64,000 bases of DNA, taken from the IMG/VR virus record IMGVR_UViG_3300042914_002215. The stretch is one strand, 5' to 3'. Positions 38,766 through 63,970 of this stretch are shown piece by piece. The stretch is from a virus. Below the pieces are notes generated by a model, which saw nothing but the letters and a program-made list of their open reading frames with translations, was not told the DNA's origin and did no database searches. Numbering within the stretch: position 1 is the stretch's first letter; the number at the start of each line of letters is the position of its first letter. The translations under genes were made by a program, and so were the position numbers.

Positions 38766-38776
38766 GAAAGGTTATT

Positions 38777-38983
38777 ATGGATATCAAAGATATTATCAAC
38801 AATATTGCTGCTGGTGATAACATTGCAGCAAAAGAAGGTATAGAAAATGTTTTATCAGCCAAAGCGTTCGATGCGCTCCAAGGTCGCAAGCAAGAAATCG
38901 CTACAACTCTTTTTGGCGGGAAAGAGCAAGAGTCAGAAGAAGTTACAGGCGATGAAGAAAGCGAAGAAGCAACAGAAGAATGA
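38777..38983 (+). CDS. small acidic prohead core protein (gp67-like)
   Basis: Directly after gp20; acidic tail. Confidence 0.6.
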   Translation: MDIKDIINNIAAGDNIAAKEGIENVLSAKAFDALQGRKQEIATTLFGGKEQESEEVTGDEESEEATEE

Positions 38984-39639: not shown

Positions 39640-40069
39640 ATTAGACGAAGCCAAAGAACTTATCTTTGCACGTTTAGACGAGATTGCTTCTGTTCGTATG
39701 GAAGAAGCGAAACCATATATTGTTGATGCGATGTATGAAGAGATTGAAGTTGACGAAGAAGTATTAGAAGAAGCAGCTAAGAAACGCAATCCAAACATTC
39801 AGAAGATGGGTCGTATTACAAAAATACGTCGCCGTATTCGTCGTAATAAAAAAGGTAGAATTATAGTTCAGCGCAATGTTAAGAAATCTGGACTTAAAGG
39901 TTATAGAATTTCTGGTAGCACAGTCAAACGTATACCAGCAACAGTAAGATTACGCAAAGCACGTTTATTAAAACGTTCTTGGAAAACAACTAGAAAAAGT
40001 AAACTAAGACGTACATTGATGAAGAGAAAAATGTCAATGCGCCGTCGTAAAGCTATGGGACTAAAATAA
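39608..40069 (+). CDS. prohead core-like protein with Arg/Lys-rich C-terminal half (gp68-position)
   Basis: Acidic N-half, strongly basic C-half; start probably ATG 39608 rather than 39596. Confidence 0.55.
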   Translation: MNFVDLILQNKLDEAKELIFARLDEIASVRMEEAKPYIVDAMYEEIEVDEEVLEEAAKKRNPNIQKMGRITKIRRRIRRNKKGRIIVQRNVKKSGLKGYRISGSTVKRIPATVRLRKARLLKRSWKTTRKSKLRRTLMKRKMSMRRRKAMGLK

Positions 40070-40070
40070 A

Positions 40071-40433
40071 ATGCCATTTGAAATTACCAATACTCTAAGA
40101 GGATCGTCAATTGTACGAGCAGTCGATCCTGGTACATATACAATCACTCTCAATAGTTTAAGAGCAAATACTACAACCGAGACTGTTACTGCTGCTGACA
40201 TCAAACATGTTTTGTGGTCAACAAACGGTAATATTCGTATCACAAGAAACGGTGTTCCTTTGTTAGCACTTCAAAATGGTGGTGACATGGATTTTGATTC
40301 GTATGGATATTCGGTTGCAAATAATAACACTCAAAGCATTGTAATTGAAATCAATACTGGCGGAACAATTATTTTACATCTTGCCAAGTATGCAACATAC
40401 AATGTTGATCCATATACAGGAGTAGCAATCTAA
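40071..40433 (+). CDS. hypothetical head-cluster protein
   Basis: Tightly coupled (TAATG) to gp21. Confidence 0.55.
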   Translation: MPFEITNTLRGSSIVRAVDPGTYTITLNSLRANTTTETVTAADIKHVLWSTNGNIRITRNGVPLLALQNGGDMDFDSYGYSVANNNTQSIVIEINTGGTIILHLAKYATYNVDPYTGVAI

Positions 40434-41083
40434 TGAAACTCATCAAAGAACATATTGAGAATGTAAGATATCTTACCGAAAAAACGGAAGATGGTAAGAA
40501 ACAACTTTACATTGAAGGTACATTCCTTGTTGGTGATACAGTCAATCGCAACAACCGTATGTACAAAATGGACACACTTCGTAACGAAGTGCAACGATAC
40601 ACAGAAGAATACATCAATTCTAATCGTGCGCTTGGTGAACTAGGACATCCAGACACACCATCTCTAAATCTAGAACGTGTGTCACACAAGATTACAAGTT
40701 TGGTAGAGAACGGCAATACATTTGTCGGTAAAGCACTGATCATGGAAACACCATATGGTTTGATTGCTAAGAATCTTATTGAGTCTGGCGTTAATCTGGG
40801 TGTATCTTCACGTGCTTTAGGTTCTGTCGTTATGACTAAAGAAGGTTACAATCTGGTACAAGATGATTTGCGTCTTGCTACTGCTGCTGATATTGTTGCT
40901 GATCCTTCCGCTCCAGGTGCTTTTGTTCAAGGCATTATGGAAAACAAAGAATGGTTATTCGTAGAAGGTCGTTTTGTAGAATCTGATATCGACTATTCTA
41001 AGCAACAGATTCGTAAGGCATCACGCAGAGAGATTGAGGCTGTAGGATTACAGCTCTTCGAAAACTTCCTACGAAAACTTTAA
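40433..41083 (+). CDS. gp21: prohead protease gp21
   Basis: MKLI.E, NRN.R.Y, ALGELGHP, GVSSR.LGS, D.VADPSAP.AFV. Confidence 0.96.
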   Translation: MKLIKEHIENVRYLTEKTEDGKKQLYIEGTFLVGDTVNRNNRMYKMDTLRNEVQRYTEEYINSNRALGELGHPDTPSLNLERVSHKITSLVENGNTFVGKALIMETPYGLIAKNLIESGVNLGVSSRALGSVVMTKEGYNLVQDDLRLATAADIVADPSAPGAFVQGIMENKEWLFVEGRFVESDIDYSKQQIRKASRREIEAVGLQLFENFLRKL

Positions 41084-46762: not shown

Positions 46763-48286
46763 ATGTCAAAAGTGGTGACATTTGTTATACCGAGCAGTGC
46801 TGCACAAGCATACCAAGCACTTGCAAATAAATATTCTGCTATTGAACCTCCAACATGGGCATTATTGTTAGCCAATGCTGTTCGTGTTGAAGGTTATGAC
46901 CCATGTATTTTAGACTTTGATGCCGAGCCAGCAAGGGACTATGAACATGCTGCACATCAAATTGCAGAAACAGGAACAGATATAGCAGTCTTTGTTCTTT
47001 ACGGACAAAATCCAAACTCAGGCACCACAATGATGATTGGTGCATCCAAGTTAGCAACACAACTCAAACTTTCCTATCCTTCAATCAAGATCGTATTCAT
47101 CGGTTCACATGCATCTGCATTGCCATATGAAGTCATTGGTCTATCATATGTTGATTTTGTATTCATTAATGAAGGCGTATATGGTCTGTTAGATTTGTTG
47201 CAGACAAACTATGTTGATGGTTTAGATAAAGTTCGTGGTCTTGTTTATAAGAAACATGGATTTGCTGCAACTGGTGCACCGGGTGAGATTGTACAAACAA
47301 AAGACATGGATCGTGTGATGCCTGGTTATGCATGGGATTTGTTACCAAAGAAAAGAAAACTGTTAGACAAATATCGTGCTCACTATTGGCACAACTACTT
47401 CAAAGATGATGATGGACGTACACCGTTTGCTGCTATCTCAACATCATTAGGTTGTTCGTTCGGCTGTAACTTCTGTATGATCAACATTGTGAATCGTACA
47501 TCATATGAACAAGGTACAGTATCATCTGACTCACGTGGTATGCGTTTCTGGTCACCTGAATTGATGCTCAAAGAGTTTGAATATCTGTATGAGAATGGTG
47601 TTCGTACAGTTCGTCTAACAGATGAGATGTTCTTTTTGAATAAAAAGTATTACATACCAATTCTTGAAGGCATCAAACAGCGTGGTATGGACTTCAACTT
47701 CTGGGCATATGCACGTGTTGATTCTGTGCGTAAAGATCAATTAGAGTTATTCAAAGAAGCAGGTGTGAATTGGCTGTGCCTTGGTATTGAAGCAGCAAAT
47801 CAAAACGTGAGACTTGAAATTGAAAAAGGTAAGTTTGAAGATGTAGACATTCGTCGTGTTGTTTCTGACATCAAAGCAGCCGACATTAACATACTTGGTA
47901 ATTACATGTTTGGTTTTCCTGAAGATACAATGGAAACAATGCAAGAAACACTTGATCTGTCACTTGAATTGAATACAGAACATGCCAATTTCTATGCGGC
48001 AATGGCATTGCCAGGTAGTCCACTGTACATGTACGCAAAGAACAATGGATGGGAATTGCCAGAAAGATTTGAAGAGTTTGCATTCTTGTCTTATGACTGC
48101 AAACCACTACGCACAAAGACACTTGAAGGTGCAGAAGTGTTGAAGTTCCGTGATGAAGCATGGCACAAATACTTCTCACATGAGCCGTTCTTGAATCTTG
48201 TTGAAACAAAGTTTGGTGCAGACTCACGTGCAAACATTGAACAGATGTCAAAAATAAAATTGAAACGAAAAATACTTGGAGATTGA
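46763..48286 (+). CDS. cobalamin-binding radical SAM enzyme (class B methyltransferase-like)
   Basis: N-terminal B12-binding-like domain (PP...LLLA, IG.HASALP, EG), CxxxCxxC = CSFGCNFC, DEMF, LGIE.AN, YMFGFP.DT, LPGSPLY. Confidence 0.88.
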   Translation: MSKVVTFVIPSSAAQAYQALANKYSAIEPPTWALLLANAVRVEGYDPCILDFDAEPARDYEHAAHQIAETGTDIAVFVLYGQNPNSGTTMMIGASKLATQLKLSYPSIKIVFIGSHASALPYEVIGLSYVDFVFINEGVYGLLDLLQTNYVDGLDKVRGLVYKKHGFAATGAPGEIVQTKDMDRVMPGYAWDLLPKKRKLLDKYRAHYWHNYFKDDDGRTPFAAISTSLGCSFGCNFCMINIVNRTSYEQGTVSSDSRGMRFWSPELMLKEFEYLYENGVRTVRLTDEMFFLNKKYYIPILEGIKQRGMDFNFWAYARVDSVRKDQLELFKEAGVNWLCLGIEAANQNVRLEIEKGKFEDVDIRRVVSDIKAADINILGNYMFGFPEDTMETMQETLDLSLELNTEHANFYAAMALPGSPLYMYAKNNGWELPERFEEFAFLSYDCKPLRTKTLEGAEVLKFRDEAWHKYFSHEPFLNLVETKFGADSRANIEQMSKIKLKRKILGD

Positions 48287-48288
48287 TT

Positions 48289-49059
48289 ATGGATTTGCAG
48301 AGACAAGCAAACTTATATCGTAAAGAATTATTTGAGAAGTTTGTAGAAGTTGGACAGGGACATCCTGGTTCTACATTCTCAATGTTAGAGATTGTGACTA
48401 CACTTTATCATGGCGGCTATGTTGGCTTTGAAGATAAAGTTCTTATCAGCAAAGGACATGCAACTGTTGCACTTTATCCTATTCTGAAAAACTTTGGAGT
48501 TATTGCTGAAGAAGATTGGAATAATTGGGGCAAAGGATTACCATCATGCTTGCGTGTGTTTGGTAACATTTCTATTCCAGGCATTGACATGACTTCAGGT
48601 TCATTGGGACATGGCGTTGGTGTTGGTGCAGGCATGGCAATTGGCAATCCAGATAGTCATGTGTATACAATCATCTCGGAAGGTGAACTGTATGAAGGTT
48701 CAACATGGGAAGGATTATTGTTCGTTGCACACCGTCAGTTGAAAAACATGACAATCTTTATTGATGTAAACAATCTTATTATTCTAGGAAAAACTGATGA
48801 TTGTCTGCGCCTTAATTCTATCAAAGACAAGCTATCTGGGTTTGAGTTTGATATTTACACTGTCGATGGTCACAACACAAACTCTATACAAGCAGCCTTG
48901 GATGCAGCCTCTAATCAACCAAAAATAATTATTGCAAACACTGTCAAAGGTAAAGGTTTTTCATTGATGGAGAACAAACCAGAATGGCATTACATGCAAG
49001 CAATTACACCAGAACAAATTGAACAGTGCCGTAAGGAGATTAATGATGCTACAGCGTGA
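48289..49059 (+). CDS. transketolase-like protein, N-terminal (ThDP-binding) subunit
   Basis: GHPG...S, LISKGHA, GSLGHG, SEGE..EG..WE...N, DGHN, TVKGKG, WH. Confidence 0.9.
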   Translation: MDLQRQANLYRKELFEKFVEVGQGHPGSTFSMLEIVTTLYHGGYVGFEDKVLISKGHATVALYPILKNFGVIAEEDWNNWGKGLPSCLRVFGNISIPGIDMTSGSLGHGVGVGAGMAIGNPDSHVYTIISEGELYEGSTWEGLLFVAHRQLKNMTIFIDVNNLIILGKTDDCLRLNSIKDKLSGFEFDIYTVDGHNTNSIQAALDAASNQPKIIIANTVKGKGFSLMENKPEWHYMQAITPEQIEQCRKEINDATA

Positions 49060-49957
49060 TGCATTTATTGAAGAAGTAAAGAAACGTTTAGAGACTGATA
49101 AAGATATTTACTTTCTGTCTGCTGACTTTGGTGCAGCAGCGTTAGATAGTCTACGTGAAGAGTATCCAGATAACTTTGTTCACTGCGGTATCTCAGAGCA
49201 AGCAATGCTTGACATTGCAACTGGTCTTGCATTGCAAGGTAAAAAAGTATTCTGTTACGCCATGGCACCATTCATCTCACTCCGTGCTATTGAACAAATC
49301 AAATGCGGTCCATCAATGATGAATCTGCCTATTGCTATTCTTTCTGTTGGTATTGGTATTGGATATGCTGATGCCGGTCCTACTCATTACATCACAGAAG
49401 ATTTTGCATGTATGCGTTCAATCATCAATCTGAATGTATACACATTAGCAGATGCAAGTTCGGCTAAACGATTGGCTAATCAAGTATTAGACAATCCAGA
49501 ACTGTGTTACATTCGTTTTGATCGTCATGATCAACCAGAACTACCAGTAACTAATTTTAAGAATGATCTGACTTATCGTTTGATTGGTGATACTGTTGAT
49601 AAATCAAAAGTGTTATTGATTGGCTCGGGTAAAATGTCTCACATTATAAGTGAAGTGTGTAGAGAAAGAGATGATGTTGTTGGTGTTGATTTGATTCGTG
49701 CCAAACCATTTCCATTTTCTTTCTCTAACTTGTTGACTGAGTGTAAGGGTGTAATTGTTGTTGATGAACAAACACCATGCGGCTCATTGGGTGCAGCAGT
49801 CATGGAAGATATGGCATCAAACTCCATATTAAAACCTATACACGTTATCACATTGCCAGAACAATATTTGTTTGAGAATGGTGGTCGTGAATATTTGTTG
49901 AAGAAACATGGTCTGAGCAAAGAAAATATCATACAAAAACTGAATGATTATTTCTAA
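49043..49957 (+). CDS. transketolase-like protein, C-terminal subunit
   Basis: RBS AAGGAG; LSADFG, GISEQAM, GPTH...ED, YIRFDR. Confidence 0.9.
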   Translation: MMLQRDAFIEEVKKRLETDKDIYFLSADFGAAALDSLREEYPDNFVHCGISEQAMLDIATGLALQGKKVFCYAMAPFISLRAIEQIKCGPSMMNLPIAILSVGIGIGYADAGPTHYITEDFACMRSIINLNVYTLADASSAKRLANQVLDNPELCYIRFDRHDQPELPVTNFKNDLTYRLIGDTVDKSKVLLIGSGKMSHIISEVCRERDDVVGVDLIRAKPFPFSFSNLLTECKGVIVVDEQTPCGSLGAAVMEDMASNSILKPIHVITLPEQYLFENGGREYLLKKHGLSKENIIQKLNDYF

Positions 49958-50930
49958 AACACCGTATAGACTGTCACTATTTGGTGGTGGTACAGATTAT
50001 CCAGCGTGGTTTGAAACGAAACAAACGAAGATAATCTCGGCTGCTATGGCACATTATTGCTATGTCAGTTTGAAGAAACTGCCGCCATACTTTGATTATG
50101 TAAATAGAGTTATCTACTCAAAGATAGAGAGTGTAAAAGACATTTCAGATATAGATCATCCTTCTGTAAGGGAGTGTTTGAAATACTATGGAATACCTAA
50201 TGGCATTTCTATTAGCCATGACGGCGATCTACCTGCTCGGTCTGGCATTGGCTCATCTTCTTCATTTACTGTTGGACTAATCAATGCTATTCATACTTAC
50301 TTAGGGTATCGTAAAGTAAGTAAATTCCAATTAGCAAGTGAAGCAATCAATATTGAACAAAACTATATTGGTGAATCTGTTGGTGTGCAAGATCAAATTA
50401 TGGCTGCATATGGTGGCATTCGTGTCATTGAATTATCTGGTGCTAATATCAATGTTCGTGATCTGAGAGTGAAAGATAGTTATGTTCTTGATCTTGAAGA
50501 ACACATCATGTTGGGCTTTTCTGGTATAGATAGACTTTCTGACGTACATGCCAAACAACAGGTGCAGTCAATCAAAGAAGGTAAGTCGGTCAAATTATTG
50601 GAAGAAATAGCATCTATTACAAATAATGCATTGCATATATTTGAAAGTTATGGTAAAATAAAAGAAATAGGTGAGTTGTTAGACTATCAGTGGAAACGCA
50701 AACGTGAACTCACGAATAGTGTTACAACTGATTACATAGATAACATATACACTAAAGCAATGAATGCTGGTGCGTATGGTGGTAAGTTGATGGGTGCAGG
50801 TGGTGGTGGATTCTTTATGTTTCTTGCACCACCAGATGCACATGAGAAAATAAAACAAGCAATACCTGAAATCAACGTATGGGTGCCTTTTGCATTTGAT
50901 TACGAAGGCTCAAAAATTATTATGGAGTGA
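49944..50930 (+). CDS. GHMP-family sugar kinase, HddA-like (heptose-7-phosphate 1-kinase family)
   Basis: TPYRLSLFGGGTDYP, DLPARSGIGSSSSF, G.QDQ..AAYGG, GGKLMGAGGGGF. Confidence 0.88.
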   Translation: MIISKTPYRLSLFGGGTDYPAWFETKQTKIISAAMAHYCYVSLKKLPPYFDYVNRVIYSKIESVKDISDIDHPSVRECLKYYGIPNGISISHDGDLPARSGIGSSSSFTVGLINAIHTYLGYRKVSKFQLASEAINIEQNYIGESVGVQDQIMAAYGGIRVIELSGANINVRDLRVKDSYVLDLEEHIMLGFSGIDRLSDVHAKQQVQSIKEGKSVKLLEEIASITNNALHIFESYGKIKEIGELLDYQWKRKRELTNSVTTDYIDNIYTKAMNAGAYGGKLMGAGGGGFFMFLAPPDAHEKIKQAIPEINVWVPFAFDYEGSKIIME

Positions 50931-50932
50931 TT

Positions 50933-52105
50933 ATGAAGTACCCACTAATGTCAGACAATATTACTAGAGAAGATTTAGATTTGGTAATAGAGCATCTCAA
51001 AAAAGGTAATCCAAAACTAACTAATGGTCCAGAGTGCCGTGCTTTTGAAGAAGCATGGAGCAAATGGTTGGGTGTAAAGTATTCTGTGTTTGTAAACTCA
51101 GGTGCTTCTGCTAATCTATTGTCTATGACAATGTTGAAGATTCTACATCCAGAAGGCGGTGAAGTTATCGTGCCACCATTCACATGGATATCTGATGTTG
51201 CATCTGTTCTACAGTGTGGTTTTACACCAGTGTTTGTTGACATTGACTTGAATACACTTGGCATGAACACTGAAGGTATTCTCAAAGCAATTACACCAAA
51301 AACACGTGCAGTGTTTCTTACATATGCACAAGGCTTCAACTGTCTTACAGACGAATTGTTATTGAAACTACAAGCACTCAATATTCCATTGATTGAAGAT
51401 GTGTGTGAATCACATGGCGCAAAACACAACGACCAATTATTAGGTAGTTTTGGTTGGATGTCTAATTTCTCATTCTACTTTGCACATCATATGTCAACGA
51501 TTGAGGGTGGTATGGTATGCACAAACGATGAAAATGTATATCACACAGTTCGTATGCTTCGTTCACATGGCATGGTGCGTGAGTGTGGTTCAGAAAGCAT
51601 GAAGCAATCATATCAGGACATGTATCCTGAACTCAATCCTGATTTTATCTTTGCGTATCCAGCATATAACATGCGTAACACAGAGATTGGTGGTATACTT
51701 GGCCAGAATCAGTTGAAATATTTGGATGAAAATGTGTCCAAACGAAATGATAATTTACTTTACTTCATGAATAAATTGGATGGAACAAAATATAAAGTAG
51801 ATTTTAATTATGATGGTTGCAGTAACTATGCATTCAATATTGTGCTACAACCAGAATATGCCAACAAAGATTTTGCACAAAGACTCATGCACAAAATGCG
51901 TGATAATGAGATAGAGTATCGTCGTGGTTCTGCTGGTGGTGGTAATCAGTTGCGTCAGCCATATCTGACTGGTGTGTACGGTGATCATTACTTAGATTTT
52001 CCTAACACAGAACACATGCACTTCTACTCATTCTATATTGGAAATTATCCAACATTGAGTAAGATGGCAATTGATGAAATAACTGGCGTATTGAATAGGG
52101 TGTAA
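50933..52105 (+). CDS. PLP-dependent DegT-fold enzyme, ColD/E1-like NDP-sugar 3-dehydratase
   Basis: NSGASANL, IEDVCESHGA, FSFYFAHHMSTIEGG (His at the usual Schiff-base Lys position), RSHG. Confidence 0.82.
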   Translation: MKYPLMSDNITREDLDLVIEHLKKGNPKLTNGPECRAFEEAWSKWLGVKYSVFVNSGASANLLSMTMLKILHPEGGEVIVPPFTWISDVASVLQCGFTPVFVDIDLNTLGMNTEGILKAITPKTRAVFLTYAQGFNCLTDELLLKLQALNIPLIEDVCESHGAKHNDQLLGSFGWMSNFSFYFAHHMSTIEGGMVCTNDENVYHTVRMLRSHGMVRECGSESMKQSYQDMYPELNPDFIFAYPAYNMRNTEIGGILGQNQLKYLDENVSKRNDNLLYFMNKLDGTKYKVDFNYDGCSNYAFNIVLQPEYANKDFAQRLMHKMRDNEIEYRRGSAGGGNQLRQPYLTGVYGDHYLDFPNTEHMHFYSFYIGNYPTLSKMAIDEITGVLNRV

Positions 52106-52107
52106 TT

Positions 52108-53049
52108 ATGGGACAATGGCGTGTATTAGTAACTGGTGGTGCTGGTTACATTGGTAGCATTCTTGTTGAATATCTTTTACAGATGGGTTGTTTAGTAACT
52201 GTAATTGATAACTTCATGTTCGGACAAACAAGTCTGAATCACTTGTGTGACAATAAAAATCTAAAGATTGTGAACGGTGACATTCGTAATCCATCACACA
52301 TGGCACCTCTACTAAAAGAAGCAGACATAGTTATACCTCTTGCTGCATTAGTGGGTGCACCACTGTGTAATAAAGATGTTGTTGGTGCAGACACGACAAA
52401 TAAAGATGCGATGTTCTGGATGCTGAATGCTGTATCTAAAAAACAACGCATTATTATGCCTACAACTAACTCAGCATATGGCACTGGCGATGAGAACAAC
52501 TTCTGTACAGAGGAATCACCACTGCGTCCAATCTCTAAGTATGCGATTGATAAAGTAGCAGTTGAAGAAAGATTGATGGAACGTGAGAACTCTATCAGTT
52601 ATAGACTAGCAACTGTGTTTGGTATGTCACCACGTATGCGTACTGACTTGTTAGTAAATGATTTGACATATCGTGCAGTCAATGATGGTTATGTTGTTAT
52701 CTTTGAAGGTCATTTCAAACGTAATTATATTCATGTACGTGATGTTTGTGAAGCATTCTTACATGCAATCTATCAGTTTGAAGAAATGAAAAGCAACATC
52801 TATAATGTAGGATTGTCATCTGCAAATGTATCTAAGTTGGAACTATGTGAGATTATCAAAAAACATGTGCCAAACTTTACGATTGTAGAAGGTGATATCA
52901 AGAAAGATCCAGATCAAAGAAACTACATTGTATCTAATGAGAAGTTGGAAGCAACTGGTTGGTATCCTTATCACACATTAGATGATGGCGTTGAAGAACT
53001 AATCAAAGGTTATCAGTATCTCAAAAACAATAAACACGGTAACGTATGA
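52108..53049 (+). CDS. NAD-dependent sugar epimerase/dehydratase/reductase (extended SDR)
   Basis: VLVTGGAGYIGS, YAIDK (YxxxK), RLATVFG.SPRMR.DL.VN, RNYIHV.D. Confidence 0.9.
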   Translation: MGQWRVLVTGGAGYIGSILVEYLLQMGCLVTVIDNFMFGQTSLNHLCDNKNLKIVNGDIRNPSHMAPLLKEADIVIPLAALVGAPLCNKDVVGADTTNKDAMFWMLNAVSKKQRIIMPTTNSAYGTGDENNFCTEESPLRPISKYAIDKVAVEERLMERENSISYRLATVFGMSPRMRTDLLVNDLTYRAVNDGYVVIFEGHFKRNYIHVRDVCEAFLHAIYQFEEMKSNIYNVGLSSANVSKLELCEIIKKHVPNFTIVEGDIKKDPDQRNYIVSNEKLEATGWYPYHTLDDGVEELIKGYQYLKNNKHGNV

Positions 53050-53585
53050 GCACAAACAACCATTATGTAAACAATGCTGACTTTCTTGCAGCACTCATCA
53101 AGTACCGTGATGAATGTGAACATGCAAAGAAAAACAGCACACAAGAACCAAAGATACCAGACTACATTGGTGAATGCTTTCTAAAGATTGCAGAACATCT
53201 ATCACGTAAGCCAAACTTTATTTCATACACATATCGTGATGAGATGATATCGGATGGTGTAGAAAACTGTCTGATGTATTTCCGTAACTTTGATCCTGCT
53301 AAGTCTAAGAATCCATTTGCTTACTTCACACAGATAATTTATTATGCCTTTCTGCGTAGAATTATGCGTGAGAAGAAGCAACTGTATGTAAAGTATAAGG
53401 CAACACAACAGTTTGGTTTGTTAGATGAAGGCGAAATGTACGAAGATGAAAACGGCAACATGAAACAGTTTGAGTTGTACGACAATATCTCCGAGTTCAT
53501 TCATAACTTTGAAGAAAACAAAAAGAAAAAGAAGGTAAAGAAGTTAGTTGGACTTGACAACTTTCTTGATGATGATATAATCTAA
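53046..53585 (+). CDS. gp55: late transcription sigma factor gp55
   Basis: HYVNNADFL, YIGECFLKIA..LS.KPNF..Y.YRDEMI.DG.ENC, NPFAYFTQIIYYAFLRRI..EKKQ. Confidence 0.96.
   Translation: MSTNNHYVNNADFLAALIKYRDECEHAKKNSTQEPKIPDYIGECFLKIAEHLSRKPNFISYTYRDEMISDGVENCLMYFRNFDPAKSKNPFAYFTQIIYYAFLRRIMREKKQLYVKYKATQQFGLLDEGEMYEDENGNMKQFELYDNISEFIHNFEENKKKKKVKKLVGLDNFLDDDII
53554..53581 (+). promoter_or_regulatory. sigma70-type promoter inside the gp55 3' end, upstream of gp47
   Basis: TTGACA-16-TATAAT with extended -10 TG. Confidence 0.6.
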
Positions 53586-53587
53586 GT

Positions 53588-54658
53588 ATGAAACTATGCA
53601 TACTTGGTGACACGCATTTTGGAATGCGTAACGACTCTTTGGAATTTCATAAATATATTGAGAAGTTCTACGAGAACACTTTCTTTCCATATCTAAAAGA
53701 AAATGGTATTACAACCGTTGTACAACTTGGCGATCTATTCGACCGCCGTAAGTTTATTAACTTCAATTCACTCTATTTGTGTCGTAAATACTTCTTTGAT
53801 AAACTTAGAGAAAATGACATCAAGTTCATTACGCTTCTTGGCAACCACGATGTCGCATACAAGAATACGTTAGAGGTAAACTCATCTCAACTGTTACTAA
53901 ACGAATATGATAATATTACTATATACGATTCTTTTAGTACAGTTAATTTTGACGGTATTGATGTTGACATTGTACCTTGGTTATGTGACGACAACGAAAG
54001 TGAAATCCTTTCTCAAATAAAATCTTCCAAATCACAAATCTGTTTCGGTCACTTTGAAATAGAAGGCTTTGAGATGCAAGCGGGCATCATGCAACAAGAA
54101 GGTCTAGACCGCAGCAAATTAAAAAAATATGATGTAGTTCTCACTGGACATTTTCATCACAAGTCAACAGATGGTTCAATTACATACGTAGGCACACCGT
54201 ATGAAATGTTCTGGTCTGACTACAATGATCCACGTGGATTTCATATCTTTGATACTGATACACGTGAGTTAGAGTTCGTACAAAATCCATATAGAATGTT
54301 TTATAAGTTGAATTACAAAGATGATCTGGAGCACTTTGCAGAAAACTATCGGACATTTGATTATTCAATCTATAAAGATTCATATGTCAAAGTAGTAGTA
54401 TTGATAAAACAAAATCCATTTCTGTTTGATGTAGTAATTGATAATCTATACAAAGCTGGAGTTGCAGATGTAACTATTGTAGAAGATTTTACCGAAGTAG
54501 AAAATAATAACGATGAAGAATTGGTAGATCGTGCTGAAGATACCATGACAATTCTTTCCAAATATATTGATAACTTGACACTCAATGTGGAATCTGATAA
54601 ACTAAAGAACATTATGCAAGAACTTTATGTAGAAGCATTAAGTACCGAAACTGAATGA
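53588..54658 (+). CDS. gp47: recombination endonuclease subunit gp47 (Mre11/SbcD-like)
   Basis: GDTHFG, LGDLFDRRK, GNHD, GHFE, GHFH. Confidence 0.95.
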   Translation: MKLCILGDTHFGMRNDSLEFHKYIEKFYENTFFPYLKENGITTVVQLGDLFDRRKFINFNSLYLCRKYFFDKLRENDIKFITLLGNHDVAYKNTLEVNSSQLLLNEYDNITIYDSFSTVNFDGIDVDIVPWLCDDNESEILSQIKSSKSQICFGHFEIEGFEMQAGIMQQEGLDRSKLKKYDVVLTGHFHHKSTDGSITYVGTPYEMFWSDYNDPRGFHIFDTDTRELEFVQNPYRMFYKLNYKDDLEHFAENYRTFDYSIYKDSYVKVVVLIKQNPFLFDVVIDNLYKAGVADVTIVEDFTEVENNNDEELVDRAEDTMTILSKYIDNLTLNVESDKLKNIMQELYVEALSTETE

Positions 54659-56364
54659 TATTATTTAAAAGACTACGCTGGAAAAATTTACTCTCAACTG
54701 GCAATCACTTTACTGAGATATTACTAAACGGCAATCCAAACACGCTAATCGTAGGCACAAATGGCTCAGGTAAGTCAACGATGCTTGATGCTTTGTGTTT
54801 TGGTTTGTTTGGCAAGCCGTTTCGTAATATCAACAAGCCCAATCTCCTAAATAGTATTAATGGTAAAGATTGTGTAGTTGAGATTGAGTTTTCTGTTGGC
54901 AATAAAGAATATAAGATTGTTCGTGGTATCAAACCGAATGTGTTTGAGATATACCAAGACGCAGTTTTGCTGAACCAAGATGCGGCTGTAAGAGATTATC
55001 AAGACTACTTAGAGAAGTTCGTTCTCAAACTAAACTACAAGTCTTTCACGCAGATCGTTATTCTTGGTTCAGCATCCTTTACACCGTTCATGCAGTTATC
55101 TGCTGCTGATCGTCGTGCAATCATTGAAGATTTGTTAGACATTCAAATCTTTTCTACAATGAACAGTCTGGTAAAAGAAAGACTGTCAAATAATAAAGAG
55201 TTGACCATAGCCAAGAAGAACGATGTATCACTTCTTGAGCAAAAATATGAACTCAAAAAAGAGCATCAAGATAAACTCAATGAAGATATTGAAGTAAAGG
55301 TAAAAGAATATGAGAAAGAGATACTTCTGCACAGAGAAACAATACGCACCTTATGTGGAGAGATTGACGATCTGGAGCAATCAAAGAAAGCACTTGCCGA
55401 AATCTGTGCGAAAATTCCTGAAAATGAAAAGAAGATTGCTGCGTTTACAAAAGTTGAGTCACAGATTGAGAGCAAAATATCCAAAGTGGGAAATGATAGA
55501 AGTTTCTATGAACACAATGCTGATTGCCCAACCTGTAGGCAAGCCATTACCTTGGAGTTTAAAGAGGGGCAACTCACAGAACTTGCTACAAAAGAACAAG
55601 AACTCAGGAGTGGTCTAACAGAACTACAAACAAAAATAACAGAACAAGAAAATGTTATTGCCGATCTGCGTGAAAAAGAAAAAGAACTGTCTAATGTTCG
55701 TGTTCAAATCGCAACCACAAACACAAGCGTCAAAGGTTTGAATGACACAATCAAGAGACTTGAAAAAGAAATCAAAGAACTAAGAACACCGAAAGTAAAT
55801 AACACAGACACAAACGAATTGGAAACAATTCAAACACAGATAAAAGAATCACAAGAAGAACTAAAGCAGTTGATGATTGATAAAACATATCTTGATGTAG
55901 CATCAACTTTGTTGAAAGATACTGGTATCAAAACCAATATCATCAAACAATATTTGCCTGTGATAAACAAACTGGTAAACAAATATCTTACCAGTATGGA
56001 CTTCTTTGTGAACTTCAATCTTGATGAGTCTTTCAAAGAAACAATCAAGTCACGCCATCGTGATGATTTTAGTTATCACAATTTCTCAGAAGGTGAGAAG
56101 CAGCGTATTGATATGGCATTGATGTTGACATGGAGAGCAGTAGCCAAGTTGAAAAATTCCATAAATACAAACCTACTGATACTGGATGAGGTTTTTGATT
56201 CAAGCCTAGATACCAGTGGCACAGAAGATTTGATGAAGATACTACACACACTTGACAATGTAAATCTGTTTGTCATCAGTCATAAAGGTGACATACTACA
56301 AGATAAGTTTATGAATACAATACGATTTGAGAAAGTCAAAAACTTTTCAAGGATAATGAAATGA
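54655..56364 (+). CDS. gp46: recombination ATPase subunit gp46 (Rad50/SbcC-like)
   Basis: G.NGSGKST, CPTC hook, FSEGEK.RID, LILDEVFDSSLD, ISHK. Confidence 0.96.
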   Translation: MILFKRLRWKNLLSTGNHFTEILLNGNPNTLIVGTNGSGKSTMLDALCFGLFGKPFRNINKPNLLNSINGKDCVVEIEFSVGNKEYKIVRGIKPNVFEIYQDAVLLNQDAAVRDYQDYLEKFVLKLNYKSFTQIVILGSASFTPFMQLSAADRRAIIEDLLDIQIFSTMNSLVKERLSNNKELTIAKKNDVSLLEQKYELKKEHQDKLNEDIEVKVKEYEKEILLHRETIRTLCGEIDDLEQSKKALAEICAKIPENEKKIAAFTKVESQIESKISKVGNDRSFYEHNADCPTCRQAITLEFKEGQLTELATKEQELRSGLTELQTKITEQENVIADLREKEKELSNVRVQIATTNTSVKGLNDTIKRLEKEIKELRTPKVNNTDTNELETIQTQIKESQEELKQLMIDKTYLDVASTLLKDTGIKTNIIKQYLPVINKLVNKYLTSMDFFVNFNLDESFKETIKSRHRDDFSYHNFSEGEKQRIDMALMLTWRAVAKLKNSINTNLLILDEVFDSSLDTSGTEDLMKILHTLDNVNLFVISHKGDILQDKFMNTIRFEKVKNFSRIMK

Positions 56365-56954
56365 GTGAAATACTAACAATTGATACCGCTGCTGGCATAC
56401 AACAAGTAGAACAAGTAGAGCCACTACAAGTGTTTGATGATAACTACTTTATGCTTCAGCAAAAAATACCAGAATACACTGGTGGATTTCCAGCACCAGC
56501 AATGGTAAACTTAGCCAAAAGATTGAAGTTGACAATGAAACTTTATTCTGGTCTTGGTCTTGCTGCTAATCAATGTGGTATTGCAGAGCGAATGTTTGTT
56601 ATTGGTACAGATGAGTTTCAAATGGTATGTATCAATCCAAAAGTATTAGATGAAGATGATGAATGGGAAAAAGGTAAAGAAGGATGTCTATCCTCACCCG
56701 GATTGTTTCTGAATATTGAAAGACCGAAGTCAATCAAAGTAGGATTTACCGATGAGTTTGGTGAATACAAAGAAGCAATGTTACAAGGATTATCTGCTCG
56801 TTGTTACCTTCATGAGCTTGACCATCTGAATGGAATCAAGTATACTAGCTATGTAAAACCACTTGCACTTAGAATGGCAAAACAGAAAGCAAACAAAATT
56901 GTGAAGAAAATTATTAGGAATCACAAAAATGGAAAACAAAGTTCAAGAATCTAG
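56361..56954 (+). CDS. def: peptide deformylase
   Basis: GLGLAANQ, EGCLS, HELDHLNG. Confidence 0.92.
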   Translation: MSEILTIDTAAGIQQVEQVEPLQVFDDNYFMLQQKIPEYTGGFPAPAMVNLAKRLKLTMKLYSGLGLAANQCGIAERMFVIGTDEFQMVCINPKVLDEDDEWEKGKEGCLSSPGLFLNIERPKSIKVGFTDEFGEYKEAMLQGLSARCYLHELDHLNGIKYTSYVKPLALRMAKQKANKIVKKIIRNHKNGKQSSRI

Positions 56955-57279
56955 TTCATATGAAAACTGCATGGAGTTGTTGACCGATGAGTATCAACCT
57001 CCAACACTAAGCAGATTTTTTGGTGAAGAAGAAAATGATGAAGATGGTGGTGTAGATACCGAAAATGCCGAATGGAAAAAGCATTGGGTTGGTATGCCAG
57101 AGTTCGTCCAGAACGACAAGAAAACATTCAAGACAATTTATCTACATTTCCGCAATCAAGAAGATTATGATGCATTTGCCAAATTGGTTGATCAGAATCT
57201 CACTATGAAAACAAAGTCTATCTGGTATCCAAAACTAGAGCGTGATGAAAACTCACTCAAGAGATGGATTGAAGAGTGA
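56929..57279 (+). CDS. small acidic protein with W..HW.GMPEF motif, likely glycosyltransferase partner
   Basis: WKKHWVGMPEF.Q, HFRNQEDY..FA....Q.LT.KTKSIWYP. Confidence 0.6.
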   Translation: MENKVQESSSYENCMELLTDEYQPPTLSRFFGEEENDEDGGVDTENAEWKKHWVGMPEFVQNDKKTFKTIYLHFRNQEDYDAFAKLVDQNLTMKTKSIWYPKLERDENSLKRWIEE

Positions 57280-57280
57280 A

Positions 57281-58072
57281 ATGGATTTTCTGAAAGAAAA
57301 GCCTCAGGTTCTGTTTGAATATTTTCTACAAGACTATGGCAGTTTATTTGATATAGACGCTGAAGAGTGTAGAGCACTAAGAAAAACAGATAAGATTTTC
57401 CAAGAACTGTCAATAAAATGGTATGATGATCTGGAACATGAGCATGAAAGAAACATTTATGAGGTGTACAATCACGATTACTATTTTATAGATATCTTCA
57501 ATTGTTTTGTTACCTATAGCAGAGATTATATCAAACGTATAATCAAGTCATCACACTTTCAGGAACTCAAAGATGCCAAAGTAATCGTTGACATCGGTTG
57601 TGGAATAAGTTATAGTACATGCTTACTGAAGCAAATATTTCCTGAAGCAAAAGTCTATGCCATAAATCTCAAAGGCACCAAACAATGGAAGTTATGTGAG
57701 ATAATGGCGCAAAGATTTGATTTCAATCTTGTTGAATCTATTCATGACATTGAAGAATCGGTTGATATTCTATGGGCTTCAGAATACTTTGAGCACATTT
57801 ATAATCCAATTGAACATGTTGATGATATAATTAAAACACTGAATCCAAAACATATGATTGTAGCAAACTCATTCAACACATGGGGAATGGGACACTTTAC
57901 AAAGTATGATGTCTATGGTACAATAGTAAGTCAAGACAAAGTTAGTAAAATGTTCAATCAACATTTGATGGCAAAACAATATGAGAATGTCAAATGTGGA
58001 ATATGGAATAACAAACCTATAGTATGGAAAAGAAATGACCAATCCAACACATCCAGTTTATATCGTTTCTAA
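57281..58072 (+). CDS. class I SAM-dependent methyltransferase
   Basis: Motif I VIVDIGCGISYS; SEYFEHI..P; probable start ATG 57281. Confidence 0.7.
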   Translation: MDFLKEKPQVLFEYFLQDYGSLFDIDAEECRALRKTDKIFQELSIKWYDDLEHEHERNIYEVYNHDYYFIDIFNCFVTYSRDYIKRIIKSSHFQELKDAKVIVDIGCGISYSTCLLKQIFPEAKVYAINLKGTKQWKLCEIMAQRFDFNLVESIHDIEESVDILWASEYFEHIYNPIEHVDDIIKTLNPKHMIVANSFNTWGMGHFTKYDVYGTIVSQDKVSKMFNQHLMAKQYENVKCGIWNNKPIVWKRNDQSNTSSLYRF

Positions 58073-58931
58073 AGGTCGTTCAGACACAATGATCACCTCA
58101 CGATCATTGTCACGCATGAGAGTACCACACTACATTGTAATTGAACCACAAGATAAAAAGCCATATGAGGATGCACTTGATAAGTTCGGCATTCGTGACT
58201 ATGTAACATTGATTGTCGCACCGTTCAGTAATCATGGTGATGGTCCTGGTCGTGCAAGGAACTTTGCATGGGATCATTCTATCTCTATCGGTGCAGAGAA
58301 ACATTGGGTGCTTGATGATAATATCGCAGACTTCTACCGCTTGCATAACAACTATCGTATTCGTGTAGAGTCTGGCTGCATCTTCAAAGCAGCAGAAGAT
58401 TTCATTGATAGATTTGAAAATGTGCCAATCTCTGGCTTTCAGTATCGTTTCTTCATTGCACCAAATCAAAGTTATCCACCATATGTAAAGAATACACGAA
58501 TCTATTCTACACTATTGATTGATAATAATTGCAAGCACCGTTGGCGTGGTAGATATAATGAAGATACTGATATCTGTCTGCGTGTATTGAAAGATGGTGA
58601 CTGCACCATTCAATTTAATGCATTTCTTCAAGGCAAAGCAGCGACACAAACTGTCAAGGGTGGTAATACAGAAGAGTTCTATCACAAAGAAGGTGTTGAA
58701 AAGAATCATTGGGTAGATGGTGTCAATGCTGAAGGTACCAGAAACAAATCAGAAATGCTGGTACGTATGCATCCAGATGTAGCACGAATGGTATGGAGAT
58801 ACAAACGCTGGCATCATTATGTTGATTATTCACCGTTCAAGAAGAATGAACTGCGTTATAAAAAGAACATCACAATACCAACTGGTACAAATGAATATGG
58901 TATGAAATTGGTAACTAATTTCAAGTCTTGA
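58035..58931 (+). CDS. GT-A glycosyltransferase, TET-associated (TAGT)/GREB1-like family
   Basis: VYIVSKGR, RARNFAWD, HWVLDDNI, RIYSTLLI, WRGRYNEDTDICLRVLK, GGNT. Confidence 0.78.
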   Translation: MTNPTHPVYIVSKGRSDTMITSRSLSRMRVPHYIVIEPQDKKPYEDALDKFGIRDYVTLIVAPFSNHGDGPGRARNFAWDHSISIGAEKHWVLDDNIADFYRLHNNYRIRVESGCIFKAAEDFIDRFENVPISGFQYRFFIAPNQSYPPYVKNTRIYSTLLIDNNCKHRWRGRYNEDTDICLRVLKDGDCTIQFNAFLQGKAATQTVKGGNTEEFYHKEGVEKNHWVDGVNAEGTRNKSEMLVRMHPDVARMVWRYKRWHHYVDYSPFKKNELRYKKNITIPTGTNEYGMKLVTNFKS

Positions 58932-58956: not shown

Positions 58957-58982
58957 TACCATATAGTGATTAACAGGAGATG

Positions 58983-59144
58983 ATGATGTCAGAATTACAA
59001 GACTTTGTTGACGAAAATGAAACAAATTACCAATTTGCTTTGCTTGATGTCAAAAATGCAATAGATACATATGGCATTGAAATAGTGTTTGAAGCACTAG
59101 ACTTGACAAATATCGTCATGCTTGATACAATGTATGTTCAGTAA
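58983..59144 (+). CDS. small acidic hypothetical protein (~53 aa; absent from ORF track)
   Basis: RBS AGGAG at 58975; MMSELQDFVDENETNYQFALLDVKNAIDTYGIEIVFEALDLTNIVMLDTMYVQ*. Confidence 0.55.
   Translation: MMSELQDFVDENETNYQFALLDVKNAIDTYGIEIVFEALDLTNIVMLDTMYVQ
59103..59131 (+). promoter_or_regulatory. sigma70-type early promoter
   Basis: TTGACA-17-TACAAT, extended -10 TG, 30 nt upstream of 59161. Confidence 0.7.
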
Positions 59145-61422: not shown

Positions 61423-61428
61423 TAATGG

Positions 61429-61465
61429 ACCACTACTTGACAAAGTGGTGGTTCTCTTTTATAAT
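61429..61465 (+). promoter_or_regulatory. terminator-like hairpin overlapping a perfect sigma70 promoter
   Basis: ACCACTACTT-GACA-AAGTGGTGGT stem-loop; TTGACA(61437-42)-17-TATAAT(61460-65). Confidence 0.75.
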
Positions 61466-63154: not shown

Positions 63155-63970
63155 ATGCAACTACAAGTTAACCTTGAACAACTAAGAAAAAATAAACTGT
63201 TCGTTGCTACACCAATGTATGGTGGCATGAACCACGGTTTGTACATGAAGTCATGTCTTGACTTGCAAACCATCATGATACGTTATGGTATCGAAACAAA
63301 ATTCTCCTTTCTCTTCAACGAATCCCTAATCACACGTGCTCGTAATTATCTGGTAGATGAATTTCTGCGTACAGATTTTACACACATGATGTTCATTGAC
63401 TCCGATATTCATTTTGATCCAAATGATATTATTGCATTGATGGCACTTGATAAAGATGTTATCGGTGGTCCTTATCCTAAGAAGTCAATCAATTGGGGTA
63501 ACATTGCTGAGACAGCACGTAAACATCCTGATTTGAATCCAAAAGAACTTGAGAATCTTGTTGGTGAATATGTGTTCAACGTAGTAAAAGGCACACAACA
63601 ATTCCAAGTATCAGAACCTCTAGAAGTTATGGAGATTGGTACAGGTCACATGATGATCAAACGTGGAGTGTTTGATAAGATGAAAGAGGCGTATCCTTTC
63701 ATTCGTTATAAGCCTGATCATATTGGTCAAGCACACTTTGACGGTTCACGTTACATTCACGCATACTTTGATACTGTAATTGATACTACTGATTCATGTG
63801 TGGGTGGTGGTTCTGATCGTTATCTGTCAGAGGATTACATGTTCTGTCAGATGTGGCGCAAGATAGGTGGTCAAGTTTATCTGTGCCCATGGATGAAAAC
63901 TCAACACATTGGTACATACGCATTTACTGGCAACATGCCCGCTGTTGCTCAGTATACTGGTAGACTTTGA
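63155..63970 (+). CDS. GT-A fold glycosyltransferase-like protein
   Basis: LFVATPMYGG, NESLITRARN, FIDSDI (DxD), YPKK, GTG.M.I.R, YLSEDY.FC. Confidence 0.7.
   Translation: MQLQVNLEQLRKNKLFVATPMYGGMNHGLYMKSCLDLQTIMIRYGIETKFSFLFNESLITRARNYLVDEFLRTDFTHMMFIDSDIHFDPNDIIALMALDKDVIGGPYPKKSINWGNIAETARKHPDLNPKELENLVGEYVFNVVKGTQQFQVSEPLEVMEIGTGHMMIKRGVFDKMKEAYPFIRYKPDHIGQAHFDGSRYIHAYFDTVIDTTDSCVGGGSDRYLSEDYMFCQMWRKIGGQVYLCPWMKTQHIGTYAFTGNMPAVAQYTGRL

Follow-up and report, generated by a model that had tools for sequence, protein, structure and literature searches.

The DNA of an uncultured aquatic T4-like phage contains three consecutive genes that resemble a glycosylation system, raising the question of whether these genes act together and, if so, which molecule receives the sugar. 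In the window, i.e. the whole 64,000-nt stretch of DNA analysed, gp47 (53588-54658), gp46 (54655-56364) and the peptide deformylase gene def (56361-56954) are followed on the same (+) strand by ORF-A (56929..57279; 116 aa), a class I SAM methyltransferase gene (MT; 57281..58072) and the gene for a TAGT-family GT-A glycosyltransferase (GT; 58035..58931; 298 aa), with MT in the slot between ORF-A and GT. The start of ORF-A overlaps the def stop codon by 26 nt, and GT overlaps MT by 38 nt. The ORF list gives a GTG at 57242 as the start of MT; the alignments with nine homologues begin at the ATG at 57281, which lies two bases past the ORF-A stop codon, and, therefore, MT abuts ORF-A and does not overlap it. 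Thus, the three co-oriented genes described in the initial annotation, which was made from the sequence alone, were borne out, with the first two abutting and the last two overlapping. Dozens of independent viral contigs show the same gene arrangement, i.e. far more than chance would give. We conclude that ORF-A, MT and GT constitute one functional glycosylation module.

A site on the + strand at 53554..53581 matches TTGACA/16/TATAAT at 12/12 positions and weakly suggests a possible early sigma-70-type promoter that would serve the gp47-gp46-def-A-MT-GT run; it is one of two perfect matches in all, and in total count promoter-like sites are no commoner than in shuffled controls. Up to 61427, the + strand has no terminator-like site, and the surroundings of the module contain no T4-type late motif (TATAAATA). 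A conserved GT-like gene at 63155-63970 was weighed as a further member of the module and discarded, since it is common among T4-like phages without a TAGT.

GT matches the Pfam family TAGT (PF20691; E 4.6e-41; 141.5 bits with a cut-off of 27.5) over profile positions 2-205 of 205, and phrog_842 (8.8e-45). In an alignment of 31 sequences, divergent paralogues included, R75 as well as D94-D95 (58314-58319, + strand) and E176-D177 (58560-58565, + strand), all of them catalytic residues, are invariant and fit the signature R...DD(D)...ED(Y/F); an R...DDD...EDY/F signature has been described for phage DNA GT-A enzymes (10.1101/2023.12.21.572611). GT is, thus, a genuine member of the TAGT family, as the initial annotation had recognised from the motifs of TET/JBP-associated (GREB1-like) glycosyltransferases; it is a GT-A enzyme of the TAGT/GREB1 type. 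It is a basic protein (pI 9.2, net +9), its sequence contains neither a signal peptide nor a membrane segment, and it is ~81% identical in phages whose gp46 is ~53% identical. The AF2 model of GT (pTM 0.70) gave as best Foldseek matches GT-A and NDP-sugar-binding/nucleotidyltransferase folds, with a TM of only ~0.4, and solved structures searched by sequence with the profile of GT yielded nothing meaningful. Such generic fold matches carry no information on the acceptor.

ORF-A had been set down as a separate "GMPEF protein". Its N-terminal half is acidic (net -12), and it contains a conserved core of ~70 aa and the motif W-V-G-M-P-E-F at residues 53-59 (57085..57105, + strand). Searches of Pfam, PHROG and NCBIfam gave no family match, and the protein atlas returned unnamed viral clusters only. 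By contrast with a protein of separate function, ORF-A has a homologue in the first ~100 aa of the Aeh1 TAGT protein (399 aa in total; E 3e-11), and its domain is fused to a TAGT in Aeh1, phage 65, POP12, PTm1, Kuja, GD1 and the Vibrio phages 1.076.O and 1.124.O. A profile search with ORF-A reached 2912 clusters; among the homologues sampled, the short forms adjoin a TAGT while the long forms are TAGT fusions. In all 77 related loci in which upstream DNA is present, ORF-A is adjacent to the TAGT on its upstream side, mostly with a 4-nt overlap, and the same pair occurs in unrelated metagenome contigs. We conclude that ORF-A is the N-terminal domain of GT itself, made as a separate, translationally coupled protein.

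Modelled alone, ORF-A folds poorly (pLDDT 58.7). The predicted complex of ORF-A and GT, in turn, scored 0.88 versus 0.17 for the best of three controls. Among 80 solved complexes, 58 reached the mark on this scale, as did 2 of 110 mismatched pairs. At least 78% of the contacts were shared between runs, with a partner pLDDT of at least 70. Because no related solved structure was found by sequence, this score is unlikely to stem from a complex already known to the predictor. In the contacts of lowest predicted error, ORF-A residues 52-59, i.e. the W-V-G-M-P-E-F motif, meet GT residues 102-104, 119-123, 149-150, 196 and 285-288, and among 28 ORF-A sequences W53, M56 and P57 are invariant and G55 is nearly so. 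In total, these observations establish ORF-A as the partner of GT, with the binding itself being predicted and the W-V-G-M-P-E-F motif being its predicted main contact.

MT matches Methyltransf_31 (2e-6; 28 bits, cut-off 27), Methyltransf_11 (8e-5; 23.6 bits, cut-off 21.2) and Methyltransf_23 in Pfam and, weakly, Tam, UbiG and BioC in NCBIfam; no DNA-methylase family (C5, N6 or N4) is among these matches. The SAM motif I, D-I-G-C-G, and the motif S-E-Y-F-E-H are invariant, and the nearest solved relatives, which are weak matches, are alkaloid N-methyltransferases. Judged from its sequence, MT is a class I SAM-dependent methyltransferase of the small-molecule type. The slot between or after ORF-A and GT is empty in some relatives; in others it is taken up by a methyltransferase of class I or of the FkbM type, by a GT-B enzyme or by a second, divergent TAGT. 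This repertoire agrees with the "sequential GT" class described for DNA glycan pathways (10.1101/2023.12.21.572611). The divergent TAGT in the slot of locus L014 had no tblastn match in cultured phages and no similarity to the main GT detectable by BLASTP and, therefore, a likeness to the T6 enzyme that adds a second sugar could not be shown. The 351-aa slot gene of locus L060 has neither a relationship to the GT-B slot gene nor a family match. Since in other phages a second glycosyltransferase or another kind of methyltransferase takes this place, MT most likely tailors the transferred sugar; the role of sugar modifier that the initial annotation gave to MT fits the slot, and its direct target is a matter of inference.

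The initial annotation had further proposed that the acceptor is a hydroxymethylated pyrimidine and that the sugar comes from the cassette at 46763-53049 upstream of the module. In this explanation, 5-hydroxymethyl-cytosine or -uracil in DNA receives the cassette sugar, which MT then modifies, consistent with the hydroxymethyl-pyrimidine-derived acceptors of the characterised TAGT-type enzymes. The search for precursor enzymes covered relatives and the neighbourhood in the 64-kb window, and a hydroxymethylase could be encoded in the ~two thirds of the phage genome that lie outside the window. The relatives comprised 18 partial genomes, six of them near-clade contigs of 42-80 kb, and one complete genome (G001), which measures 149.6 kb and has terminal repeats. 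None of these 19 had a match to the thymidylate-synthase family (PF00303), for which T4 gp42 was detected as the positive control, or to Tet_JBP (PF12851), a search that had no positive control. Moreover, no C5 methylase was found in G001 and four long relatives, and the alpha-GT and beta-GT families (PF11440, PF09198) were absent from G001-G004, while the T4 controls scored 862 and 328 bits. The Vibrio phages 1.076.O and 1.124.O likewise have no known precursor pathway, and gene 42 is also missing from Aeh1 and phage 65 (PMC2993671). G001 has ThyX for dTMP as well as a dCMP deaminase. Its lone 2OG-Fe(II) oxygenase was considered as a base hydroxylase; the protein is of the prolyl-hydroxylase type, its gene lies ~55 kb away from the module, and G002, a relative that is 85% complete, does not have it, making such a role unlikely.

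Thus, the known precursor enzymes are absent in the relatives, an absence that the initial annotation itself had named as evidence against its proposal, and a reading that depends on a hydroxymethylase, TET/JBP or C5 methylase is not supported. The cassette points the same way. In 14 loci of the near clade, the SDR gene of the cassette is found upstream of gp55, which agrees with the proposal; the cassette accompanies all three slot variants there, however, and is therefore not tied to MT, and the cassette genes that were scanned included no nucleotidyltransferase. G001 has ORF-A, MT and GT without the cassette, and at least 14 other loci likewise have ORF-A and GT but no cassette; in these loci and in G001, gp55 directly follows UvsW and a small post-UvsW gene. 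We conclude that the module is independent of the sugar cassette. Altogether, the overall interpretation in the initial annotation stands for the TAGT glycosyltransferase and the single module, with sugar tailoring by MT fitting as well, and falls for the hydroxymethylated base and the cassette link, a combination that we now regard as very unlikely.

What, then, is the acceptor? The module neighbours gp55, gp47 and gp46 here, and dCMP deaminase, DnaB-like helicase or DndB/GmrSD_N-like genes at other loci; in GD1, henriette, 1.124.O and phage 65, the homologue lies within replication or nucleotide-metabolism modules. In addition, the acidic linker of ORF-A contains the peptide T-L-S-R-F-F-G (57004..57024, + strand), which follows the pattern T-L-x-x-F-F-[G/S]. 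The near-clade DNA polymerase ends in S-T-L-E-D-F-F-S, gp43 of G001 in S-L-E-S-F-F-A and that of T4 in S-L-D-F-L-F-G, and the gp55 C-termini in these phages read L-x-x-F-[LIM] followed by acidic residues. A hydrophobic-acidic motif occupies the aligned position in 28/28 ORF-A sequences, and ORF-A residues 16-38 lie outside the predicted interface with GT. The peptide is short, lies in a low-complexity acidic region, is internal and not C-terminal as in gp43 and gp55, and is absent from the fused proteins of cultured phages. With T4 alpha-GT known to bind gp45 (PMC13216743), we consider T-L-S-R-F-F-G a candidate binding motif for the gp45 sliding clamp, suggesting a testable link to the replisome. 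The gp45 gene of this phage lies immediately past the end of the window. Based on the replication-gene neighbours, the basic catalytic subunit and the polymerase-tail-like peptide in ORF-A, we infer that DNA is the likeliest target. DNA is the substrate of the T6 TAGT and of the GT-A enzymes associated with TET (10.1101/2023.12.21.572611), and the Aeh1 homologue has already been listed as "presumably modifies DNA, unknown base" (PMC8056088).

A protein (of the phage virion, of phage replication or of the host), a glycan or a small molecule could be the acceptor instead, with the slot enzymes extending or methylating the glycan. GREB1, a member of the same family, is a protein O-GlcNAc transferase (PMC7968844); relatives have no hydroxylated-base pathway; the phage carries further sugar-pathway genes in its cassette; and in Vibrio phage 1.076.O the gene lies between portal and head-morphogenesis genes, i.e. 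in a head module, which counts against DNA. Similarly, most metagenomic GT-A contigs (~65%) have no neighbouring base-modification gene and were judged less likely to be DNA-modifying (10.1101/2023.12.21.572611). Against such an acceptor stand the replication or nucleotide-metabolism context in most phages examined, the basic catalytic subunit, the clamp-like peptide of ORF-A and the fact that all phage members of the family with known activity act on DNA; an envelope glycan in particular is at odds with an enzyme that has no signal peptide or membrane segment. On balance, we consider a non-DNA acceptor rather unlikely. RNA, e.g. a modified tRNA base, is by analogy another conceivable acceptor: GT enzymes that glycosylate queuosine in tRNA exist, the carriers phage 65, PTm1 and Aeh1 are tRNA-rich giant phages, and in phage 65 tRNA genes lie near the gene. 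However, no tRNA or RNA-modification genes accompany the module in the window or in 80 related loci, and both the surrounding replication genes and the peptide resembling a clamp-binding motif favour DNA; RNA is, thus, highly improbable.

Our best explanation, to which we give close to an even chance, is that a two-subunit TAGT GT-A enzyme with a tailoring MT glycosylates phage DNA at a non-classical acceptor site. Since the relatives have no thymidylate-synthase homologue or TET/JBP enzyme that would supply it, the acceptor in this explanation is not a hydroxymethyl- or hydroxy-pyrimidine made by these enzymes. We know of no case in which a canonical DNA base is glycosylated. The module would be transcribed early together with the recombination genes gp47 and gp46; ORF-A would dock on the catalytic subunit via its W-x-G-M-P-x-F core, and T-L-x-x-F-F-G in its acidic linker would tether the enzyme to the sliding clamp in the way T4 alpha-GT is tethered to gp45. 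The enzyme would then use a nucleotide-sugar of the host to place a sugar on replicating phage DNA, and MT would subsequently methylate the transferred sugar. The more specific claim that A-TAGT enzymes place a sugar, here methylated, on a DNA acceptor outside the known hydroxy(methyl)pyrimidine pathways and do so at the fork by means of a clamp-binding adaptor subunit is, taken as a whole, improbable.

In the terminology of PMC13216743, GT counts as a "solitary" TAGT. Solitary TAGTs were already known, with such genes reported in 288 of 753 GT-carrying phage genomes; what is new here is the split N-terminal partner domain and the variable slot. ORF-A represents an obligate, so far unannotated partner domain of TAGTs with ~2,900 sequence clusters, the tailoring slot diversifies in the way expected in an arms race with host defences, and a complete genome (G001) contains the GT system without any known precursor pathway. 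If DNA is the target, the chemistry of the modification would be new, with consequences for the evasion of restriction and CRISPR and for sequencing bias in aquatic viromes; a sugar on a novel DNA acceptor would occur widely among aquatic T4-like phages that have not been cultured, and cultured phages of Aeromonas, Vibrio and Tenacibaculum would have it too. Because the fused form is carried by the cultured phages Aeh1, 65, PTm1 and Vibrio 1.076.O, the question of the target is experimentally accessible.

Several known systems share features with the module. GT-A enzymes associated with TET/5mYOX or ThyS (PMC8256090, PNAS 2021; 10.1101/2023.12.21.572611) have the same R...DD...ED signature and, as here, sequential GTs and sugar-tailoring genes beside the primary GT; they adjoin, however, a C5 methylase and a TET or a thymidylate-synthase homologue that supplies the hydroxyl, none of which was found here or in relatives. 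The eukaryotic enzymes GREB1 and JGT, the base-J glucosyltransferase, belong to the GT-A clade and have a catalytic domain of the same family as GT, but GREB1 glycosylates protein, JGT needs hmU made by JBP, and neither has the ORF-A domain. T4 alpha-glucosyltransferase (PF11440) is encoded in the same gene 55-47-46 neighbourhood, its placement between genes 55 and 47 confirming the parallel drawn initially, and its binding of gp45 is the mechanism proposed for ORF-A; by contrast, it has a GT-B fold, belongs to a family unrelated to GT and uses hmC as acceptor.

The T2/T6 beta-glucosyl-HMC-alpha-glucosyltransferase is the founding TAGT and shares PF20691, the PHROG and the GT-A fold with GT; the T6 enzyme, likewise from a T4-like phage, acts after replication. 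It adds a second glucose to alpha-glucosyl-hmC and, thus, depends on gp42 and alpha-GT, whereas the relatives examined here have neither gp42 nor a primary alpha- or beta-GT, the combination that marks a T-even secondary GT. Moreover, tblastn with GT fails to reach the T-even enzymes, and, judging from sequence and structure prediction, a separate ORF-A subunit would be needed here. The closest likeness is to the fused A-TAGT proteins Aeh1p093, ST65p128 (phage 65), POP12_148, PTm1 gp209, Kuja gp032/033, GD1 gp80 and NVP1076O_12, the catalytic domains of which are 44-52% identical to GT and the N-terminal domains of which are homologous to ORF-A. These are single polypeptides of 384-471 aa, whereas here the two parts are encoded by two genes between which a tailoring gene can intervene, and ORF-A has gained an acidic tail with the clamp-like peptide.

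The window covers part of the genome of an uncultured myovirus of the T4 type. The major capsid protein of this phage shares ~64% identity with its counterparts in cyanophages P-RSM6 and P-TIM40, and a DNA-level search with the window found no close cultured relative. On a single strand, gp55 (53046-53585) is followed by gp47, gp46 and peptide deformylase and then by three genes: ORF-A (56929-57279), which encodes a small acidic protein of 116 aa; MT, a class I SAM-dependent methyltransferase gene, the start of which (ATG at 57281) was set by nine aligned homologues together with the sequence; and GT (58035-58931), which encodes a protein of 298 aa. The initial annotation had described a three-gene module with a TAGT-type glycosyltransferase, and this was confirmed: in profile searches, GT matched Pfam TAGT (PF20691; E 4.6e-41) and phrog_842 (8.8e-45), and its residues R75, D94-D95 and E176-D177 do not vary among 31 sequences, very divergent paralogues included. 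These residues correspond to the R...DDD...EDY/F signature of phage DNA GT-A enzymes and JGT (10.1101/2023.12.21.572611). A sigma-70 consensus (12/12) is present at 53554-53581; downstream of it, no terminator was found on the + strand before 61427, and no late-promoter motif was found near the module. Together, these observations weakly suggest that the module may be co-transcribed early with gp47 and gp46. A second 12/12 match, at 61437-61465, overlaps a terminator-like hairpin (61427-61454) upstream of a CobS-like AAA gene. Between GT and a CobT-like gene, the window also has a 54-aa ORF (58980-59144) that is kept in some relatives only, with 39-64% identity.

GT is basic (pI 9.2, net charge +9) while ORF-A is acidic. 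GT is ~81% identical across phages in which gp46, ORF-A and gp47 are ~53%, ~52% and ~50% identical, respectively, a comparison that is biased upward for GT by the choice of loci by GT similarity. The conservation is unusually strong for an accessory gene, and it is consistent with an enzyme under constraint from invariant substrates. A second candidate glycosyltransferase is encoded at 63155-63970; this 271-aa protein has a weak match to Anp1-like GT-A mannosyltransferases as well as to phrog_1574, and is conserved, with 89-99% identity in loci of the closest relatives (the near clade) and 50% in G001, a complete relative. Homologues of it were identified in 64 cultured phages of the T4 type, which lack TAGT and infect cyanobacteria, Pelagibacter, rhizobia or Caulobacter.

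The 80 related viral contigs include 77 loci in which the DNA upstream of GT is present; every one of these has ORF-A there, and the two genes abut or overlap in 49 of the 77, most commonly by 4 nt. The homologue of Aeromonas phage Aeh1 is one polypeptide of 399 aa, the first ~100 residues of which align with ORF-A (33% identity, E 3e-11); similarly, phage 65, POP12, PTm1, Kuja, Paraglaciecola phage GD1 and Vibrio phages 1.076.O and 1.124.O have fused A-TAGT proteins of 384-471 aa. A profile search with ORF-A returned 2912 sequence clusters, mostly of 80-130 aa. For three of four short forms looked up, TAGT is the next gene downstream, and the fourth is cut by the contig end; among eight long forms scanned, five are TAGT fusions and none is a fusion to any other enzyme family. 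Modelled alone, ORF-A folds poorly (pLDDT 58.7). By contrast, the predicted A-GT complex scores 0.88 versus 0.17 for the best of three controls, passing a mark that was attained for 58 of 80 solved complexes and for 2 of 110 mismatched pairs; contacts agree between runs by at least 78%, and partner pLDDT is at least 70. Because a sequence search found no related solved structure, this result is unlikely to be the memory of a known complex. The most confident contacts are made by the conserved W-x-G-M-P-x-F stretch. Thus, ORF-A is part of the TAGT enzyme, an N-terminal domain that is here split off and is predicted to bind GT. Some ORF-A relatives, the metagenome proteins P0007, P0008, P0010 and P0027 (190-203 aa), have the ~70-aa core in two or three tandem copies, and the N-terminal extensions of the PTm1 and Kuja proteins contain a similar F-D-N-x-x-D-L unit. 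Vibrio phage Kuja (Ackermannviridae; L104, NC_048827 30264-32952) encodes a tandem pair of fused A-TAGT paralogues, of 446 and 452 aa, next to a 'DNA end protector' gene.

At residues 26-32, in its acidic linker, ORF-A reads T-L-S-R-F-F-G, which is T-L-N-R-F-F-G in near-clade relatives. The DNA polymerase gp43 ends in S-T-L-E-D-F-F-S in the near clade, in S-L-E-S-F-F-A in G001 and in S-L-D-F-L-F-G in T4, and gp55 of these phages has a C-terminal L-x-x-F-[LIM] followed by acidic residues. In T4, gp43 and gp55 bind gp45 through their C-terminal tails. Because the linker peptide resembles these clamp-binding tails, we suggest that ORF-A might tether GT to the sliding clamp, the putative peptide being a short motif in a low-complexity region. 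A hydrophobic-acidic motif, drifting in sequence, is present at the aligned position in 28 of 28 ORF-A sequences, residues 16-38 are outside the predicted A-GT interface, and the peptide is absent from the fused proteins of cultured phages. T4 alpha-GT binds gp45, according to a statement in PMC13216743 that cites Sommer 2004.

The slot between ORF-A and GT is variable. It holds a class I methyltransferase as in the window in 17 loci, a second, very divergent TAGT paralogue (Pfam E ~1e-9) in five, a GT-B enzyme (Glycos_transf_1) in four, and an FkbM-family methyltransferase and a gene without family assignment in one locus each; it is empty in 49 loci, eight of which have a homologous methyltransferase after GT instead. 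MT carries D-I-G-C-G, a SAM-binding motif, and is similar to methyltransferases of small molecules, not to DNA methylases. A fixed core enzyme with exchangeable transferases and methyltransferases is the pattern that would be expected for the building and tailoring of a glycan, and has a counterpart in the 'sequential GT' class of DNA-glycan pathways (10.1101/2023.12.21.572611). It is therefore a reasonable idea, by analogy, that MT could modify the transferred sugar, as proposed initially.

The initial annotation also derived this sugar, as a possibility, from the cassette at 46763-53049, between a small post-UvsW gene and gp55, which encodes a B12-radical-SAM protein, a split transketolase, an HddA-like kinase, an RfbH/DegT-type PLP enzyme and an SDR; no nucleotidyltransferase was found among the cassette genes scanned. 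The cassette was observed in the near clade only: its SDR gene precedes gp55 in 14 loci of that clade, where it goes with all three slot variants. In G001, the gap between the end of UvsW (33526) and the start of gp55 (33986) is too small for the cassette, while ORF-A, MT and GT are all present (38657-40655). In at least 14 further loci, UvsW, usually with the small post-UvsW gene, leads directly to gp55, and ORF-A and GT are still there. Because many relatives keep the module without the cassette, the donor sugar of this conserved enzyme cannot generally depend on it.

G001 (149.6 kb, with direct terminal repeats; CheckV 100% complete) has a GT 81% identical to that of the window. It has ThyX and, directly upstream of ORF-A, a dCMP deaminase, and lacks the thymidylate-synthase family, which would cover dCMP and dUMP hydroxymethylases and 5-hydroxy-dCMP synthase, as well as C5 DNA methylase, alpha-GT, beta-GT and, in a search without positive control, Tet_JBP. 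Because the same search on T4 detected td, gp42 (58 bits), alpha-GT and beta-GT, these negatives, Tet_JBP excepted, are meaningful. Similarly, neither the thymidylate-synthase family nor Tet_JBP was found in 18 partial relatives, six of them near-clade contigs of 42-80 kb, or in the cultured carriers 1.076.O and 1.124.O, and Aeh1 and phage 65 were reported to lack genes 42 and 56 (PMC2993671). The initial annotation had named the lack of such a pathway as refuting its hydroxymethyl-base model, and this lack was observed in the relatives searched, G001 and the 18 partial genomes among them. The full initial model, in which GT places the cassette sugar on a hydroxymethylated base and MT modifies it, is improbable, as it needs a hydroxymethylase in the unseen ~two thirds of the genome of the window phage, unlike its relatives. 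Kuja has one thymidylate-synthase-family gene (206 bits) that could be a dUMP hydroxymethylase. Tenacibaculum phage PTm1, which carries a fused A-TAGT, has a third, weak match to this family (L117, NC_049340 123231-123866; 37 bits; one in-frame TAA) apart from its split td gene, and this may be a divergent hydroxymethylase-like gene.

Phage members of the TAGT family with known activity all act on DNA (PMC13216743; 10.1101/2023.12.21.572611). The module lies beside gp55, gp47 and gp46, near the place of alpha-gt in T4; variable neighbours in other loci include a dCMP deaminase, a DnaB-like helicase, a homing endonuclease and a weakly DndB/GmrSD_N-like gene, and the homologues of GD1, henriette, 1.124.O and phage 65 have helicase, clamp-loader, polymerase, dUTPase, Dam or dNMP-kinase genes around them. 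Because of the family activity, these replication-type neighbours, the basic and conserved GT and the early-type promoter, DNA would be our best guess for the acceptor. An acceptor other than DNA is a serious, if doubtful, alternative: GREB1, of the same family, glycosylates protein (PMC7968844), the gene of Vibrio phage 1.076.O lies between portal and head-morphogenesis genes, and relatives lack the precursor pathway. RNA, suggested by analogy, would be a very improbable acceptor. In Vibrio phage henriette 12B8 (L106, NC_021073 21373-22215), the RefSeq record annotates no gene at the position of the TAGT homologue, which is between clamp-loader and dUTPase/polymerase genes. The DndB/GmrSD_N-like gene (L073:3561-4973 and L068:4-1416) encodes a 470-aa protein with weak DndB and GmrSD_N (DUF262-like) matches just upstream of ORF-A, and is followed by an Rv2179c-like 3'-5' exonuclease gene. 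GmrSD enzymes restrict glucosylated DNA, and a phage copy beside GT is therefore curious.

Solitary TAGTs were found in 288 of 753 GT-carrying phage genomes, with their function called undefined (PMC13216743), ~65% of GT contigs have no neighbouring base-modification gene (10.1101/2023.12.21.572611), and the Aeh1 enzyme is listed as 'presumably modifies DNA, unknown base' (PMC8056088). Relative to this, the obligate ORF-A domain or subunit with its split form, the tailoring slot, the demonstration of a complete relative with the module but without a known acceptor pathway, and the possible clamp tether appear to be new.
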